20,000 nucleotides of DNA, from IMG/VR virus record IMGVR_UViG_3300030107_003727. One strand, written 5' to 3'. The notes below the pieces were generated by a model. That model saw only the letters and a program-made list of their open reading frames with translations, made no database searches and was not told where the DNA came from. The stretch's first letter is position 1; each line of letters opens with the position of its first letter. Positions 13,216-19,909 of this stretch are shown here, piece by piece. This DNA comes from an uncultured virus (IMG/VR IMGVR_UViG_3300030107_003727). Taxonomy: Duplodnaviria; Heunggongvirae; Uroviricota; Caudoviricetes. The translations under genes were made by a program, and so were the position numbers.

Positions 13216-13543
13216 CGTATAGATCCCCATAGTTGACGTTCCATGCTTTGCAAAGTCGGCGCACCATGCGCTCGATTCGCTCAAGCGATTCTGTCTTTTC
13301 TTGTTTCTTCTCTTGCATAGCAAGAGTCGTCCGGCAAGCAGGTCTGGCACGGTATTCAATGCCTCGTCGTTTGCATGCCCTCCGGGTGGTGCTTGGACTT
13401 ACGTCCAAGTTCAACGCATCGCCACATTGTTTCGCAAGAGTCACATGGTGTGGGCGCTCCTCAAGGATTCGTTTGCGCTGCGATTCAATCCACTCGTTGA
13501 TGCGATCTAAGTCGTCATCGGTTTGTTTGCGTCGGGTACTCAT
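13199..13543 (-). CDS. Hypothetical basic protein, possible HTH
   Basis: LAKQCGDALNLDVSPSTTRRACKRRGI resembles a winged HTH. Its start is coupled via TAATG to an upstream small ORF. Confidence 0.65.
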   Translation of the reverse strand: MSTRRKQTDDDLDRINEWIESQRKRILEERPHHVTLAKQCGDALNLDVSPSTTRRACKRRGIEYRARPACRTTLAMQEKKQEKTESLERIERMVRRLCKAWNVNYGDLYDDETE

Positions 13544-13662
13544 TAGCGGTCCTCGTGTCTTTCCACCGTGTCACCGTACACACGGTCGTATCCGTTGATA
13601 TCAAAGATCGTGAGTACGGCTTTCGCCGTACCCACGATCACCTTGAACACAGTCTGTATCAC
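13543..13662 (-). CDS. 39 aa micro-ORF (MIQTVFKVIVGTAKAVLTIFDINGYDRVYGDTVERHEDR), not in the ORF track
   Basis: Fills the gap exactly, with a GTGA overlap at its start and a TAATG overlap at its end. Confidence 0.6.
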   Translation of the reverse strand: MIQTVFKVIVGTAKAVLTIFDINGYDRVYGDTVERHEDR

Positions 13663-14147
13663 TCGGTGGCCTCCGAGTCGTCATCCCCAGACCATGTGTC
13701 CGCCACACTGTTGTGGAGTTCGTGCAGTGCGATTACACGTTTGCGGTACTCATGCTGATTCCGCTCTCCCAGTGAGACAAGTATCTTTTCGCACAAGTCA
13801 ACCATCTGTTGATTCTGCGCTGCAAACTTGTTTGCACCGTTGGCAATTTTGTCGTAGTCAAGTTGTTCACCCGCCGCCGCCATCCGTGCAAAATCTGCAA
13901 GTTGCTCGGCCAGTTCCCCGAGGTTCTTGAACCTTGAGCCGTACGCCTTGATGATGGACGAGAGCATAAGACCACGCTGGTCGTTGCCCTCTTTTAGTTT
14001 GCAAGCAAACTTGAACATCATCTCTGTCTCTGCGTCTGCCGGTATTGGCAGGTGTCCAAACAATGTCATTGTGCCAATGACATCTTTCCAATCGCCCGGA
14101 TCACCGGACGATTCCAATTCGGGGAATGGTGTGTTTTCCATGCTCAT
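13659..14147 (-). CDS. Hypothetical protein
   Basis: 162 aa ORF with an ATGA overlap with the upstream gene and GAGG upstream. Confidence 0.75.
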   Translation of the reverse strand: MSMENTPFPELESSGDPGDWKDVIGTMTLFGHLPIPADAETEMMFKFACKLKEGNDQRGLMLSSIIKAYGSRFKNLGELAEQLADFARMAAAGEQLDYDKIANGANKFAAQNQQMVDLCEKILVSLGERNQHEYRKRVIALHELHNSVADTWSGDDDSEATE

Positions 14148-14620
14148 GCTTGCACCTCTTCGGTTTGTGGGTTTGCGGCGTTGGGAGTCTCTTCGTCGGA
14201 GACGGGAGGCAGCGAATCGACAAGGTCGTCGAGCCTGCCGTACAGGACGTTCAGTCCTTCACAAAGTGATTGGATATCGTCTCGAAGCACTCGTGCTTCT
14301 TGCCAGTCAACGTCAATGCTTTCGCAGGTATTCTCGGCGTTGTCAATGTAGTGGTGTGCATCACTGATGGATGCGTCACCAATCTCGCGGATCTCGGATG
14401 CCAAGTCCTTGACTTCAGAGTCTACGCGGTCCATGTTGTCCGCCACAGTGTCGGCATCGCTGTCGAGGGACTCGACTTCACGAAGCAGGTCGCCAAGGTA
14501 GTCACGGATAGCAAGGACACGACCCGAAATTCCCGGGGCCATGTCACCGGTAGGGATGCCAGCCTCCTTGGAGGCAGCGGCGAGAATGGTGTTGAGTTGG
14601 GTGATGAGTTCAGTGTTCAT
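14144..14620 (-). CDS. Hypothetical acidic coiled-coil protein
   Basis: Heptad-like acidic helix. Start at ATG 14620 (MNTELITQ), just downstream of hairpin A. Confidence 0.75.
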   Translation of the reverse strand: MNTELITQLNTILAAASKEAGIPTGDMAPGISGRVLAIRDYLGDLLREVESLDSDADTVADNMDRVDSEVKDLASEIREIGDASISDAHHYIDNAENTCESIDVDWQEARVLRDDIQSLCEGLNVLYGRLDDLVDSLPPVSDEETPNAANPQTEEVQA

Positions 14621-14633
14621 AGTGGTTTCCAAT

Positions 14634-14687
14634 CTCCCCCGAATCTCTGGGGGTTCATTTCATTACCCCCCCAGATATTCAGGGGAG
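14634..14687. repeat. Intergenic hairpin repeat, copy A (divergent centre)
   Basis: CTCCCC-C-GAAT-C-TCTGGGGG...CCCCCAGA-T-ATTC-A-GGGGAG. Arms are closely similar to copy E, but the centre is TTCATTTCATTAC. Confidence 0.75.
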
Positions 14688-14714
14688 TGTAAGGTGTGGT
14701 TCAACCGTCGTCAA

Positions 14715-15644
14715 TCAGGAACGAACAAGTCCCTTGTTCACAATGGACAAGTAGGCTTCGGTGAGGTCTTGCATGTCCTCGACCGGGGTGAGCATCAGGT
14801 CGTAGCGATCACCGTGGATCTTTTCGTACGCCGCTGAACGCTTGGCTGGTGTGCAAAGCCCTTGCCCCGAGTCCATCTTGAACTTGGCTAAGCCTCGTGG
14901 CATTGGTTGACACCATGACTCGAAGCAAAGCATTCGATAGAACGCTGGGTGACCAAGTGCCATCAACGCTTGCGGATCGACTCGTCGATCAGCAGGCTTG
15001 ACGCAGATGCCTTGTCCAACGGATCGTGTTCCGGAGCCGGTGCAAAATTGGCCACCGTCACCGGTCTGTCCGACCACTGCCTCGATGCGAACGGGGTAGC
15101 CATCGTTCTGTAGTTGCTCCGCAAGAGCAGTGGCTCGGCCCCAACACTCGGCAAACTTTTTACCGTCCGTGGTGCAAACAGCAGAGATGCCAACGCCAAG
15201 CGTCACCAGTGGGTGGAAGGCTTGGTTCTGTTTGCGCCGCCAGTGGTACTCCGTGCCGCTGAGGTAGCGGTCGATCATCGGTGACCCACCACCTGCCGCA
15301 ACGGAGTTGCGTTTCCGTTTTGCATACGTCTTGGTGCGGTTGCCGGTCTTGCCGAGCAAGACCTTAGCGGCCTCCTGCCGCGCCTTGTCGTACCAGTCAC
15401 GAGTGTTTGCATCGGAGCAAACGCCGCATTCAATGTCCGACATGGCATCGGCAAACCGGACACCTCCGGTGTGGAAGCGGTCGCTGAAGTTGGGGTTGCC
15501 CTTCAGGGCATCGGCCCAAACACCGTGGTTGTTGTCTGTGTCAATCGAGAGCGTTCGCTCCTTAGTGACCTTTTGCACGAAGTCATCGACAGAGTCGAAG
15601 TATTCGAGCATGGTGTTTTCGTCGTGCTTTGCTGTGAATTGCAT
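14715..15644 (-). CDS. Putative vWA-like partner of the AAA ATPase (degenerate MIDAS)
   Basis: Directly downstream of a MoxR/CobS-like ATPase. VTLGVGISAVC strand, helix, PVRIEAV strand and GHPAFYRML fit a vWA-like fold, but there is no intact DxSxS. Confidence 0.5.
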   Translation of the reverse strand: MQFTAKHDENTMLEYFDSVDDFVQKVTKERTLSIDTDNNHGVWADALKGNPNFSDRFHTGGVRFADAMSDIECGVCSDANTRDWYDKARQEAAKVLLGKTGNRTKTYAKRKRNSVAAGGGSPMIDRYLSGTEYHWRRKQNQAFHPLVTLGVGISAVCTTDGKKFAECWGRATALAEQLQNDGYPVRIEAVVGQTGDGGQFCTGSGTRSVGQGICVKPADRRVDPQALMALGHPAFYRMLCFESWCQPMPRGLAKFKMDSGQGLCTPAKRSAAYEKIHGDRYDLMLTPVEDMQDLTEAYLSIVNKGLVRS

Positions 15645-15656
15645 GGTGCAAACTCC
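15642..15656 (-). promoter_or_regulatory. Start-associated motif GGAGTTTGCACCATG (copy 1)
   Basis: Exact 15-mer comprising the SD and start codon. Identical copies at 18188-18202 and 18996-19010. Confidence 0.85.
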
Positions 15657-15660
15657 TTAT

Positions 15661-15704
15661 CCCCTCACCTACTGGGGTCGTAGACTCCCCCAGTAGGAGA
15701 GGGG
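15661..15704. repeat. Intergenic hairpin repeat, copy B
   Basis: CCCCTC-A-CCTACTGGGG-TCGTAGACTC-CCCCAGTAGG-A-GAGGGG. Confidence 0.9.
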
Positions 15705-15726
15705 TTGGGTTAGTGGTTGGGTTGGA

Positions 15727-17004
15727 TCACCATGATCCAACCATTGACACGGCCATGTCCAAGTCCGTCTTGGAGAGGTGCTTCCACACCTTCTTGATCT
15801 CCGTAGGAGACCAAAGCCGACACATTCGTCCGACCGTCTCACCGATGGTGAGGCCAGCGGCTCGCCACTTCTCCCATCCCAGACATGTCCGAGTCTGGAT
15901 GGTGCGGGCTGACGAGACCCCTTCGTCTTTGATATTCTTCCTTGCTTTCGCAAGGAGGTCGTACTCGGTGGCAAACGTGCCAAGCAAGACACGCTCCATG
16001 TCCGGGTCGTAGTCAAAGTGAACCATGACACCGAGTTGCTCCCACCGAGCGACGAAGTCGGTTGACTGCCGCTCGGTGTCGTAGACACCTTCGCTGCCGC
16101 CGGGTCCATCCATCGCTGAGTTGCCAGTACCGATGAAGACGAAGTCTTCGTGACGGTGAACCTTGCGGTCCCCAACGTTTACGTTGTCGTCGAAGTTGAC
16201 GAATTGGTTTAGACATGCGGTGCAACCGCTGTCTGCCTTGTCCATCTCGTCAAGGACGAGAACGACTGGCTTGTCGTATGCCCCAGTCACGACCCCTTCC
16301 TTGAAGGTTCCGTCGAGGGTGGGGTTCCCGAGATACTTCTCGGGATAGTCGTTCTTGTTGCAGCCATGGTAAATGTCCTCTCGACCAAGGATTGCAGCGA
16401 CTTGCTTCGCAGCAAACGACTTGCCAGTCCCAGAGGGACCAGCGGCGTAGCACCGACCGAACATCAGAACGCAGGTCAGCATCTCTTCGAGTTGCTTGTG
16501 TGGGTTCTTGATCGTGCCATTGGCAACGGCTTGCTCGATCATCTCCTTTGCCCTAGCAAAGGGGTTGTCGGGGGATTGCTTCAGCAATTCCTGATTGGGT
16601 GGAGGAGGTGGCGTTGGAGCAGGCTGAGGCTGATCCTCTGCCCCAAGGGGCATGTCAAGCGGCTCGCCGCCGAACGATGAGACCAAACGTTCCAAGAACG
16701 TTGGGTCGCCGCCGACCATCTTGAGCCGGTAATGCCGACGTAAGTCGGAAGGATCCCATCCCCGATCCTTGCACTCTTCTTGCAGAAGAGCAGGCCAGTC
16801 ACCAGCAAACCGGTACGAAAGTACCGCTTTGACAGCGTCACCGCCGAACTGCTGAAGCCACATTGATGCACCTTCGTTGCCGTGCTGAAGCAAGAACCTT
16901 GCTTCTGGCATCCGAAGGTAGTTGTAAAGCGAGGACTTCGTCCCCGAACGATTGCAAGCCACCTTGATGCGGTCCCTTGCTTCGGTCAATTCTCGTCGGC
17001 TCAT
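15727..17004 (-). CDS. MoxR/CobS/CbbQ-like AAA+ ATPase with N-terminal extension
   Basis: Walker A GPSGTGKS, Walker B VLVLDEMD, HEDFVFIGTGN sensor and a Pro-rich linker. Start at ATG 17004 has AAGGAG 6 nt upstream. Confidence 0.85.
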   Translation of the reverse strand: MSRRELTEARDRIKVACNRSGTKSSLYNYLRMPEARFLLQHGNEGASMWLQQFGGDAVKAVLSYRFAGDWPALLQEECKDRGWDPSDLRRHYRLKMVGGDPTFLERLVSSFGGEPLDMPLGAEDQPQPAPTPPPPPNQELLKQSPDNPFARAKEMIEQAVANGTIKNPHKQLEEMLTCVLMFGRCYAAGPSGTGKSFAAKQVAAILGREDIYHGCNKNDYPEKYLGNPTLDGTFKEGVVTGAYDKPVVLVLDEMDKADSGCTACLNQFVNFDDNVNVGDRKVHRHEDFVFIGTGNSAMDGPGGSEGVYDTERQSTDFVARWEQLGVMVHFDYDPDMERVLLGTFATEYDLLAKARKNIKDEGVSSARTIQTRTCLGWEKWRAAGLTIGETVGRMCRLWSPTEIKKVWKHLSKTDLDMAVSMVGSW

Positions 17005-17077
17005 GGCCATCTCCTTGCTGCAAAGCAGCGCCAGTTTTACGGCAGCCAACGACCATCGCTGACTTGCCAGTTGCTTT

Positions 17078-17122
17078 CCCCTTTCTCTCAGGGGTCGTAA
17101 GACTCCCCCTGAGATAAAGGGG
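17078..17122. repeat. Intergenic hairpin repeat, copy C
   Basis: CCCCTTT-C-TCTCAGGGG-TCGTAAGACTC-CCCCTGAGA-T-AAAGGGG. Confidence 0.9.
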
Positions 17123-17123
17123 T

Positions 17124-17298
17124 ATTCGGTTCCTTGTGTCCCGCCGTTTGGGGCAGGGACTATTCATTCCCATGACCTGCCTACACTCGCAGCCGCATCC
17201 GGCTGATCCCTTGAGGTCCGGTGCATTCGCAGGCTTGTTCGTGCCATGTCTGGCGAGACTTGATCTCACCCCACACGGCAGGACACAAGAAACCGAAT
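17124..17298 (-). ncRNA. Candidate structured ncRNA (~175 nt rod-like fold)
   Basis: 30 nt terminal arms (17124-17153 and 17269-17298) are complementary at 27/30 positions. Two of the three deviations are G-U pairs on the minus strand. Further internal stems are present and there is no credible ORF. Confidence 0.55.
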
Positions 17299-17315
17299 TG
17301 TCGCCTCGCGGCAAA

Positions 17316-17348
17316 CCCACCACGCAAGGCAGAGCCTCACGCGGTGGG
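17316..17348 (-). terminator. Terminator-like or processing hairpin
   Basis: Minus strand CCCACCGCGTGAGGC-TCT-GCCTTGCGTGGTGGG (15 bp, 3 G-U) followed by TTT, 13 nt after the stop at 17361. Confidence 0.55.
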
Positions 17349-17360
17349 GAGTTTGCACCG

Positions 17361-18011
17361 TCACTGAATGATGGTGTATGGCGTAGCCACTACGCCGGGA
17401 TGATTGTCGAAGTGAAACTTCCCTTCGCGCCACTCGCCACGCTCACAGAAATCCATCTCCACTTCGTGGGTTGGATTGGAGGCGTAGCCGATTTGGTACT
17501 TGCCTTGAGGATCAAGGCAGTTGCCCTCGCCGTCTTCGACGCGCCATCCAACGCACCAATCGAAGAACGAAGAGTCACCGATGCTATCCACCTCGAAGAG
17601 GCGAATATCACCGTAGTTGCCCCGGACATCTCCACCTCGGTGGAGATTGCAAGCGACAACCAAGTTGTCGCAGTACAGCCAATCCCCGGAGTCAACTCCA
17701 CCGTTGGACGACCAATGGTCGTCAATCATGCTTTGGGGAACCCAAAGGGAGAACAGGATTTGCTCCGCAAAGTTGTTCTCGTGGTTGTATGTGTTGTCGG
17801 CTCCAGAGCCGACTCGGACGTACGGCTCGCCTTTGGTCTTTGCAAGCAAAGACGCGACCTCTGCTTCGTCAGAAGCAAAGATGAACCTGTCGCTGTCGTT
17901 GTCTGCCTCGATCTCTCGGTCTGTGACCGAGGTGAGCCACGACTCAGAATCAATGTAAACCTCGGAGAGGTAAGTGTCACCTTCGGTGGTGATGATTTTT
18001 GCTTCGGACAT
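17361..18011 (-). CDS. Acidic hypothetical phage protein (216 aa)
   Basis: Start at ATG 18011 (MSEAKII) is preceded by the motif variant AAGGGTTTGCACC. Contains conserved-looking DNTYNHENN and LHRGGDVRGNY segments. Confidence 0.8.
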   Translation of the reverse strand: MSEAKIITTEGDTYLSEVYIDSESWLTSVTDREIEADNDSDRFIFASDEAEVASLLAKTKGEPYVRVGSGADNTYNHENNFAEQILFSLWVPQSMIDDHWSSNGGVDSGDWLYCDNLVVACNLHRGGDVRGNYGDIRLFEVDSIGDSSFFDWCVGWRVEDGEGNCLDPQGKYQIGYASNPTHEVEMDFCERGEWREGKFHFDNHPGVVATPYTIIQ

Positions 18012-18028
18012 GGTGCAAACCCTTCTGT

Positions 18029-18190
18029 TCAGCAAGGCTGAACGCTGATGATCTCTTCGGTGTCGGTCATCGGCAGATTCTCTGCCGCGACGAACTTGGC
18101 ATCCATGGTGCAATCCGACTGGATTGCCACGGTCATGCTGTGGGTGTGGCCGGTGTCTCGACACCGGACGACGATCTCAAACTCAAACAT
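18029..18190 (-). CDS. 53 aa hypothetical protein (MFEFEIVVRCRDTGHTHSMTVAIQ...), not in the ORF track
   Basis: Begins at an exact GGAGTTTGCACCATG copy (18188-18202) and ends just before the next gene's RBS. Confidence 0.75.
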   Translation of the reverse strand: MFEFEIVVRCRDTGHTHSMTVAIQSDCTMDAKFVAAENLPMTDTEEIISVQPC

Positions 18191-18202
18191 GGTGCAAACT
18201 CC
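18188..18202 (-). promoter_or_regulatory. Start-associated motif GGAGTTTGCACCATG (copy 2)
   Basis: Exact 15-mer. Confidence 0.85.
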
Positions 18203-18572
18203 GTTTGTTGAATAAACAGCCTAACTTGGCAAACTTGCCAAGTCAAGCGAATACCGCTGAGGGGAATTGAACCCCACCAAAGGCTCTAGCCTTTGCCATG
18301 AGCGGCGACCGATCTTCGATCCATGCCAAGCCGTGGCTGGTGCCTACCGCAACGAAGTTGCCATACGCGGCTCCATTTGCTGGTACAGCAAATGTGCAAT
18401 TCACCCTGCTACCGTCGTGCTGCCTCACCTAGTGATTACCAATCACTAGGGACATGGACTCTTTCGCTCGTCTTCGGCTTCGCCGTTTGTCGGCAAGCCT
18501 CGACGCCGTAGCATAGAGGTGTCCGGATCGCTCCAGATCGAATCGGTTTGTCGGGGCCAGTTTGGTTGGTGG

Positions 18573-18624
18573 CCCCCTCCTGAGTAGAGGAGTCGTAAGA
18601 CTTCCTCCTCTACTCAGGAGGGGG
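18573..18624. repeat. Intergenic hairpin repeat, copy D
   Basis: 20 bp perfect inverted repeat CCCCCTCCTGAGTAGAGGAG around TCGTAAGACTTC. Confidence 0.92.
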
Positions 18625-18656
18625 ACAACACCCTTTGGGTGTTGAACCCTTCGTGG

Positions 18657-18998
18657 TCAAGACCTTCTCTGAAGGTCTTGTATGTCCTTTTTGAGGTCAT
18701 CAATGGCCTCAAAAACATGGTCGAGGGCAGAGACTGAGGTCATGGCCAAATCAAATGCTTCCGCATTTGCTTTGTCCAAGATTTCGCATGAGTCTGCAAG
18801 ACTCATCATGTTTTGCTCGTCTTGGTGGTCGGGGCAAGCCGATTTTTCGGCTTGGTCGAGGATGTCCTCGGCTTTAGCCGAGGCATCCGAGGCCCGAATG
18901 ACCTGATTTTCGAGGTCAGTGAGACGTACGATCATTTGCTCTAGCAAATGTTCTGCGGTGAATTTTGGTGGTTGAACTGCTTCGGATGGCTTTGCCAT
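18657..18998 (-). CDS. Hypothetical helical/coiled-coil protein
   Basis: 113 aa ORF starting at an exact start-associated motif. Confidence 0.8.
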   Translation of the reverse strand: MAKPSEAVQPPKFTAEHLLEQMIVRLTDLENQVIRASDASAKAEDILDQAEKSACPDHQDEQNMMSLADSCEILDKANAEAFDLAMTSVSALDHVFEAIDDLKKDIQDLQRRS

Positions 18999-19010
18999 GG
19001 TGCAAACTCC
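18996..19010 (-). promoter_or_regulatory. Start-associated motif GGAGTTTGCACCATG (copy 3)
   Basis: Exact 15-mer. Confidence 0.85.
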
Positions 19011-19064
19011 TGCTGCTTCAGCAGCAAAATGAACTCGACCTCGGCAGCAGCAACTTTGCTGCTA

Positions 19065-19113
19065 CCTCCCATTTCTCTGGGGGTCGTAAGACTCCCCCCA
19101 GATAAATGGGAGG
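19065..19113. repeat. Intergenic hairpin repeat, copy E
   Basis: CCTCCCATTT-C-TCTGGGGG-TCGTAAGACTC-CCCCCAGA-T-AAATGGGAGG. Confidence 0.9.
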
Positions 19114-19489
19114 GTGAACCCCTTTAGGGGTTCAAGGTTGGCTGGGCTAACCTTGCTCCGATCCGACAGTTAGTTAGTCCACGCTGAGGGTTTGCAGTGC
19201 AAACCCCGTGCCGACTCATGGGGCTTCCCATGGGGTTTAGATACGATCTAAACCTGTGCGAAGCCTTGCGTACGCGCGCGCGAGCATTTTGCTCTGCAAA
19301 ATGGCCAACCGAACACTTGGCCAACGCTTTTTCAGCCCCTGTAAGGGGCTGGCCATCGGTTTTTGCTGCGGTTGTCTTGATCTGGCAAAGCCAGATCCAC
19401 ACCCCTACCCTCACTACATATTACATATCCCACGCAAATACACGGTGGATTTTGGAGTGTTAAGTTAGGTAAGACCCGATGATGGGGTT

Positions 19490-19909
19490 ATGGATTGCCC
19501 TGTATGCAAGAAGCGTGTGGAGCAGGGTTTCTCAGACTGTGAGCAGCAGAAAGAAAGGTTGCAGGCCAAGAACCAGCGTTTGGTTTTGGCTTTGACAGTT
19601 TTGGGAACCTTGGCCGGTAAAGAGGTTGTTGACTATGCGGTTGGATTGTCAAAAACCGTCGAGCAGGTCATCTCGCAAGCAGAAACTCAGCCCAGAGGCT
19701 CAACGGGCTTTGCTTCGAGCGTACGGCCTTCAAGAGAAGGAAAAGAAATACTGTTGGTTCAGAGCAGCAATGCCCGATTGTTTTCTAATGTGCCACCACT
19801 TACGCCAAATCTCCAATTTAACACTTCGGTCGATCCAATCATTCTTCCGGACCCTGCTCCGATGATGCTAATGGGGTTGCTGCTTACCCCGTCCAGAAAA
19901 AGGAAGTAG
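19490..19909 (+). CDS. Hypothetical membrane-associated protein with a PEP-CTERM-like tail
   Basis: N-terminal CPVC, coiled segment, hydrophobic LVLALTVLGTLAG, and C-terminus LPDPAPMMLMGLLLTPSRKRK. Confidence 0.65.
   Translation: MDCPVCKKRVEQGFSDCEQQKERLQAKNQRLVLALTVLGTLAGKEVVDYAVGLSKTVEQVISQAETQPRGSTGFASSVRPSREGKEILLVQSSNARLFSNVPPLTPNLQFNTSVDPIILPDPAPMMLMGLLLTPSRKRK

Follow-up and report, generated by a model that had tools for sequence, protein, structure and literature searches.

T7-type phages carry RNase III processing hairpins between the genes of their polycistronic mRNAs, as single, irregular structures of ∼50 to 60 nt that are fixed parts of the genome. 6S RNA (Rfam RF00013 and related families), the product of an independent gene, is ∼180 nt long, with its ends paired in a closing stem and a central bubble that resembles an open promoter. 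Correia elements (CREE or nemis) of Neisseria are described in PMC2649163 as intergenic, strain-variable segments of 104 to 157 bp, located 5′ of genes and built on a 26-bp inverted repeat, that are cotranscribed and bound or cleaved by RNase III; the same account gives >100 copies of CREE per genome, with a target-site duplication and a conserved core. Of viral genomes, 0.01% have been reported to contain MITEs (vMITEs; Nadal-Molero et al. 2024, PMC11602168). As presented in that source, vMITEs were defined by MITE-Tracker, i.e., by terminal inverted repeats plus target-site duplications, and many of them have cellular counterparts (PMC11602168).

Here, we describe a small structured intergenic element in the operon of a marine phage, a kind of element that is already known. 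It shares the intergenic location of the T7-type RNase III hairpins but is 168 nt long, branched, and optional. It is like 6S RNA in size and in the pairing of its ends within a closing stem, whereas its predicted fold has no open-promoter-like bubble and, as far as visible, it is not independent. The likeness to CREE/nemis as described in PMC2649163 extends to its length, its 30-bp stem, its position 5′ of a gene, and its strain variability, the RNase III part being an analogy; in contrast to the multicopy CREE with their target-site duplication, the element occupies one locus, shows only TT at its junctions, and takes the left end of its stem from the flank. Similarly to the nonautonomous vMITEs, it is bounded by terminal inverted repeats within a phage sequence, but no cellular or second viral copy was found by our pattern scans, whereas vMITEs often have cellular counterparts in the account of PMC11602168.

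RESULTS

Genomic setting of the element

The window, i.e., the whole 20,000-nt stretch of DNA that was analyzed, is phage-like by gene content. It encodes a virion protein of >1,900 aa, a RecE-like exonuclease, a helicase, a primase, PDDEXK and RusA-like nucleases, a serine recombinase, Sir2, DUF3846, and a MoxR/CobS-like AAA ATPase, and the 20 sequencing runs listed as containing its DNA, none of them recorded as RNA, are marine/seawater metagenomes from 12 studies. The element lies in the early/accessory part of the genome and separates two minus-strand genes: an upstream gene that ends at 17361 and the AAA-ATPase gene that starts with the ATG at 17004. The features referred to throughout are as follows (L001 is a related phage record and X5/X6 a seawater data set, both described below).

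15727 to 17004, minus strand: downstream gene, MoxR/CobS-like AAA ATPase (Pfam and PHROG matches), 425 aa with the ATG at 17004 as start
17078 to 17122, no strand: long hairpin, one of several copies, whose apical core is GGGGTCGTAAGACTCCCC; separated by 1 nt from the closing stem and by 9 nt from the indel boundary; also in L001
17124 to 17153, no strand: left arm of the 30-bp closing stem (inverted-repeat list, alignment with L001)
17132 to 17299, minus strand: optional segment of 168 nt, in the window and missing from relatives (BLAST and MAFFT against L001; X5/X6 contig joint skipping 17122 to 17297)
17156 to 17171, minus strand: small GGGA/TCCC hairpin of the minus-strand minimum free energy (MFE) structure, with the pair 17159/17168 changed from A-T to G-C in the X5 variant
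17269 to 17298, no strand: right arm of the 30-bp closing stem, entirely within the indel
17316 to 17348, minus strand: ∼15-bp hairpin that directly follows the upstream gene's stop codon and has a poor T-run (TTTGCC); identical in L001
17361 to 18164, minus strand: upstream gene of unknown function (ORF call)

The true start of the upstream gene is likely the ATG at 18011, behind a repeated GGAGTTTGCACC-like motif. This translation-start motif, (A/G)GGAGTTTGCACCATG, precedes four minus-strand genes (15642 to 15657, 18009 to 18024, 18188 to 18203, and 18996 to 19011) and thus supports gene starts at 18011 and 18190 instead of the longer ORF calls. An inverted copy of the motif, GGAGTTTGCACC, occurs without an ATG on the plus strand at 17343 to 17354, inside the region of the 17316 to 17348 hairpin.

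On the minus strand, the intergenic RNA is predicted to fold into a row of four hairpins that leaves the element intact (z, −8.9), in the order 17316 to 17348 hairpin, a small GCC/GGC hairpin, the element, and the 17078 to 17122 repeat copy, which are followed by the leader and ribosome-binding site. Both structures that the original prediction had placed on either side of the element, i.e., the 17316 to 17348 hairpin and the repeat copy, are real by the inverted-repeat list and by folding. The former was not called as a terminator in a terminator/promoter prediction, which also found no terminator belonging to the element itself. A sigma-70-type promoter adjoining the element had neither a match nor room, the one promoter-like site in 16800 to 19500 lying at 17980 to 17952. 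Since the element has no promoter of its own and is located 13 nt past the weak terminator-like hairpin of the upstream gene, we infer that it is transcribed by read-through. No transposase is encoded in the window, whose sole recombinase is the serine recombinase 5 kb away, and no tRNA or tmRNA was called by ARAGORN.

The ORFs that run across the element have no Pfam or PHROG match. A coding reading was rejected for both ORF 16838 to 17323 (minus strand) and ORF 17136 to 18041 (plus strand), which match no family; the second of the two empty alleles described below, which removes 169 nt net, not a multiple of 3, likewise argues against coding.

Predicted fold and comparison with known RNA families

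The arms at 17124 to 17153 and 17269 to 17298 make up the top-ranked inverted repeat (I1) of the window, 30 nt long and 90% complementary, with a spacing of 115 nt. The minus-strand sequence of 17124 to 17298 folds with an MFE of −96.6 kcal/mol (shuffle mean, −59.0; SD, 4.5; z, −8.38) and the plus-strand sequence with one of −80.7 kcal/mol (z, −6.41); none of 200 shuffles was as low in either case. In the closing stem, 29 of the 30 positions are paired on the minus strand, by 27 Watson-Crick and 2 G-U pairs (17132/17290 and 17142/17280, positions that become C·A mismatches on the plus strand), and the sole mismatch is 17148/17274. These findings reproduce exactly the stem of the original prediction and confirm the inverted repeat and its self-pairing fold as real. 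The element is also richer in G+C than the window (58.3% versus 52.5%).

The interior was predicted differently from what had been proposed. Instead of a rod with a central bubble, both the MFE and the centroid structures of both strands are thermodynamically predicted as the 30-bp stem closing a multibranch junction, which on the minus strand takes the shape of a long stem set onto a five-way junction. The two small hairpins anticipated by eye, GAGA/TCTC and GGGA/TCCC, are both in the minus-strand MFE structure. So are the GCCTGC/GTAGGC inner stem and a stem around CCGG, whereas the proposed CATGGC/GTCATG stem gives way to a GCCA/TGGC hairpin.

Rfam models yielded no credible family for the element, either for 6S RNA or for phage RNA motifs. 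The whole 20,000 nt returned no match at the gathering score, and the most permissive filters (E ≤ 10) returned four matches in a 601-nt and two in a 203-nt sequence, with 6S RNA among none of them. The best match, to the plant microRNA-precursor model MIR5998, scored 19.7 bits against a gathering score of 180, as expected from a generic long hairpin. Self-cleaving ribozymes, phi29 pRNA, and the other phage RNAs in Rfam had no match at E ≤ 10. A phage-encoded 6S RNA is named in no title or abstract opening of the literature searched, a depth that does not prove that none is in print.

Other structured entities were considered and rejected. A retron noncoding RNA (ncRNA) was discarded because none of the 19 ORFs scanned has a reverse-transcriptase domain and the neighbors of the element encode an AAA ATPase and an unknown protein. 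By eye only, an integron attC site was discarded (the junctions lack RYYYAAC/GTTRRRY cores, and there is no tyrosine integrase), and so were an IS200/IS605-type end and an IS110 bridge RNA, the latter for want of such a recombinase nearby.

Presence and absence among related phages

L001, an IMG/VR record of 44,579 nt rated 100% complete, is 91.5% identical to the window over 4904 aligned nt. It aligns to window positions 13540 to 17131 and then straight to 17298 to 18214. The exact gap is 17132 to 17299 (168 nt), with a boundary that slides by 2 nt owing to a TT at both junctions. Eight indels separate the two sequences, and only two of them exceed 6 nt: that at the element and one of 39 nt at 18214 to 18252. 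The empty site of L001 reads AAAGGGGTATTCGGTT|GTCGCC, and the two phages do not differ over the 92 nt left of the junction. The outer 8 nt of the left arm (ATTCGGTT, 17124 to 17131) lie outside the indel and are retained in this empty site, which makes the inverted repeat asymmetric with respect to the indel. No second copy of the element occurs in the L001 record, the one relative record searched.

We also compared the contigs of four public sequencing runs across 16600 to 17800, excluding as evidence the stretches that had no contig cover in some runs and counting X5 and X6, whose numbers are identical, as one data set. The element is unchanged in run X2, which comes from the same study as the probable source of the window, and is present at ∼92% identity in run X3 from another study, at a depth of 3 to 4.6 at which differences may be errors. 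In the X5/X6 seawater data set, a filled contig covers 17092 to 17327 at a depth of 6.4 with 10 differences from the window, and an empty joint skips 17122 to 17297 with TTGTTGG in between (depth, 13.5; shorter side, 30 nt). The filled and empty paths share identical 30-nt anchors, indicating that both alleles co-occur in one sample. This empty allele, AAAGGG-TTGTTGG-TTGTCGCC, differs from that of L001. Runs with the element thus come from three or four studies (X1/X2, X3, and X5/X6), which argues against an assembly artifact. Collectively, these comparisons show that the element is optional within a phage population of ∼91 to 100% identity, being present in some members and missing without trace of rearrangement beyond the clean gap in others.

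In this comparison, which covers filled and empty alleles only, the 8 nt of the stem that persist at the empty site (ATTCGGTT) would be explained most simply by deletion from a filled ancestor, in which case the empty alleles would be the derived ones. Two distinct empty alleles that end near the base of the stem fit palindrome-stimulated loss.

Further variation was noted around the element. In a single X3 contig (depth, 4.6), the hairpin repeat and the element are joined, to the left of 17077, to sequence unlike the window that, on the minus strand, resembles a ribosome-binding site followed by a start codon. This junction suggests a different downstream gene or leader, brought in by mosaic exchange at the hairpin repeat. 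In X2, several differences and small indels at 17364 to 17374 make the surroundings of the upstream stop codon variable, and another, independent assembly of the same phage (L002) breaks at 17363, 64 nt past the element.

Conservation of pairing in a natural variant

The X5 filled contig has 10 differences, eight of which were mapped onto the minus-strand MFE structure of the window. Two of them, 17145 C>T and 17277 G>A, affect partners in the closing stem and convert a C-G pair into T-A. Another two, 17159 A>G and 17168 T>C, affect partners in the 4-bp GGGA/TCCC hairpin and convert A-T into G-C. The difference at 17162 falls in a loop, those at 17290 and 17210 each turn a minus-strand G-U pair into a Watson-Crick pair, and that at 17283 weakens a pair, leaving A·C on the minus strand and T·G on the plus strand. 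At least two compensatory pairs among eight random transitions are expected with a P of ∼0.003 (200,000 trials), a value obtained from one variant contig and a structure built from the window's own sequence. Both X3 insertions examined (after 17160 and after 17216) fall at unpaired positions of the minus-strand MFE structure. Pairing has thus been shown to be kept by compensatory changes, placing the element under some structural constraint, and the two compensated pairs lend some support to the alternative raised in the original prediction, a new class of ncRNA.

Compensatory changes between the arms can also come from DNA-level arm-to-arm correction without any RNA function, and of the compensatory changes, only the pair in the 4-bp hairpin, a single event, escapes this objection. 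The strand signals conflict: the two G-U pairs of the window favor the minus strand, whereas the X5 wobble at 17283 (T·G) is on the plus strand.

Searches for further copies

The inverted-repeat list has no second locus of the element within the window, and a nucleotide search with 2.2 kb around it had no match in 50,697 phage records. Three inverted-repeat patterns, exact or degenerate, had no locus in IMG/VR. An internal 16-mer had 13 loci in the same collection, all 13 of them chance matches of 16 to 20 nt, and all three matches in GTDB representative contigs were single-arm chance matches. A pattern scan of metagenome contigs retrieved one locus, L002, which is 100% identical to window positions 14130 to 17363 and represents the same phage and the same site. 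Exact-pattern scans can miss diverged copies, and two of those used here (IMG/VR and metagenome contigs) would miss even the X5 variant. When relatives were sought through the flanking proteins, one of eight IMG/VR loci was close (L001) and the others were 24 to 29% identical; GTDB contained none, and named phages gave 27% matches only. More distant relatives share 53 to 60% protein identity, and the protein cluster of the AAA ATPase alone comprises 29 sequences, on contigs of as much as ∼70 kb.

The element has several attributes of a MITE: inverted ends, given as terminal inverted repeats of 22 to 30 bp (30-nt arms), a length of 168 nt, no coding capacity, and presence/absence at an otherwise conserved site, as seen in L001 and in the filled and empty X5 alleles. 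The original prediction had set a MITE-like insertion against its own reading, and the clean presence/absence does agree with such an insertion; neither further copies nor a convincing target-site duplication turned up, however, TT being all that the junctions have in common. No second locus was seen in the window, L001, IMG/VR, metagenome contigs, or GTDB and no transposase in the window. Membership of the element in a MITE family is a conjecture, of which the exact-pattern scans are a weak test.

Other structured features in the vicinity

The repeat next to the element belongs to a set of three long-hairpin copies (17078 to 17122, 18564 to 18633, and 19065 to 19113) with the common apical core GG(G/A)GTCGTAAGACT(C/T)CC. 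Their stem sequences differ while pairing is kept, and each copy lies upstream of a minus-strand gene start. Copies flank the segment 18654 to 18984, which is nonhomologous in L001. Their wobble pairs favor the plus strand (G·T on plus, A·C on minus), opposite to the genes. The core occurs at 57 loci in IMG/VR, none of which carries the element; many of them are short GGGAGTCGTAAGACTCCC hairpins followed by a T-run, resembling ordinary terminators, and versions with long stems occur several per contig in a few phage contigs of 49 to 59 kb.

The 39-nt indel at 18214 to 18252, in the window and missing from L001, is flanked by a GAATA direct repeat and contains a terminator-like hairpin on the minus strand with a 13-bp stem and a T-rich tail. 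Next to it, the minus-strand stretch 18249 to 18562 (∼310 nt) lacks a convincing ORF, shows 94% conservation in L001, and folds with an MFE of −128.8 (z, −4.2). It ends in a tRNA-like minihelix (18253 to 18309) with the T-loop GGTTCAATTCC, which is GGTTCGATTCC in L001. Rfam matches to this stretch were weak (mascRNA, 16.4 bits, E of 1.3; tRNA-Sec, 16.1 bits), and ARAGORN called no tRNA in the window or in L001. This stretch may encode a phage ncRNA that is as yet undescribed and whose 3′ end resembles a tRNA.

DISCUSSION

We tentatively read the optional segment as an accessory, structure-constrained element that is cotranscribed with the minus-strand genes and may act in cis on RNA processing or stability in the manner of Correia elements, a reading that we hold to be quite possible although somewhat short of probable. 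Read-through would place the element in a minus-strand polycistronic RNA, between the unknown gene (17361 to 18011) and the AAA-ATPase gene (15727 to 17004). Its long double-stranded stem could there be cleaved or bound by a double-strand-specific RNase of the RNase III type, whose action might determine how the message for the downstream ATPase is processed, stabilized, or coupled. We infer cotranscription, the strand, and the RNase, and RNase III action is proposed by pure analogy. Because relatives live without the element, any such role in cis would be dispensable.

The clean presence/absence between near-identical flanks would also suit a selfish MITE- or REPIN-like insertion with no function for the phage, in which the hairpin would be a terminal inverted repeat or a single-strand transposase hairpin. 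The inverted ends, the small size, the noncoding and intergenic nature of the segment, and its raised G+C content point the same way, and MITEs do occur, if rarely, in phage sequences as surveyed in PMC11602168. We nevertheless consider this origin rather unlikely, given that no collection scanned with exact patterns holds a second locus, that the junctions share TT alone, that the empty site already includes the leftmost 8 nt of the repeat, and that the window encodes no transposase and its serine recombinase is 5 kb off. Moreover, a compensatory change in the internal 4-bp hairpin is unexpected for a site recognized by a transposase as double-stranded DNA. That same change, together with the compensated closing stem, the multibranched fold, and the conserved small hairpins, would agree with a trans-acting phage ncRNA of a new class, cut from the operon transcript at the base of the stem and serving as a decoy or sponge for a host double-stranded RNA-binding, defense, or transcription factor. 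The strain-variable accessory locus beside accessory genes such as those for Sir2 and DUF3846 and the absence of matching Rfam families are in line with this possibility as well. It is unlikely in our judgment, since no promoter or terminator belonging to the element was found, pattern scans retrieved no homologues beyond one phage population, and no particular target is indicated. In its boldest form, to which we give the same slim chance, this possibility would make the element the founding example of a novel accessory ncRNA class in phages, ∼170 nt long and branched, with a 30-bp stem, acting in trans on a host factor, structurally selected, and gained and lost between strains like an antidefense gene.

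Watson-Crick compensation suits DNA as well as RNA, and the strand bias is inconsistent, so the locus may be viewed as a DNA-level palindrome, either a cruciform or single-strand hairpin for recombination, replication, or packaging or a side product of intergenic DNA that tends to form hairpins and is lost repeatedly. The only other indel of >6 nt relative to L001, with its GAATA direct repeat, is also a hairpin, and the two different empty alleles end at or near the base of the stem, as a palindrome-stimulated deletion would. Against this stand the 115-nt interior, which is nonpalindromic and yet conserved with a covarying small hairpin, and the dispensability of the element, which speaks against an essential origin or packaging site; we regard a purely DNA-level explanation as very unlikely. 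Least credible of all is the phage-encoded 6S RNA, or 6S-like RNA polymerase decoy, that had drawn attention to the locus. Size (∼175 nt) and the long closing stem are the only features in its favor. No 6S model matched at the gathering score or at E ≤ 10, neither the MFE nor the centroid structure opens a large central bubble in place of the stem and multibranch junction, the element has no promoter of its own adjoining it, and close relatives do without it, all of which leaves this assignment extremely improbable.

At present, the finding is a modest one, concerning one locus in one phage population, and it removes a false 6S lead. If our reading of a Correia-like accessory element is true, the isogenic-like filled and empty alleles within one water sample would offer a natural experiment on long RNA hairpins in phage operons, the paired changes in the natural variant would be direct evidence of selection on pairing, and marine phage populations would carry a structured noncoding module as a strain-variable accessory trait.
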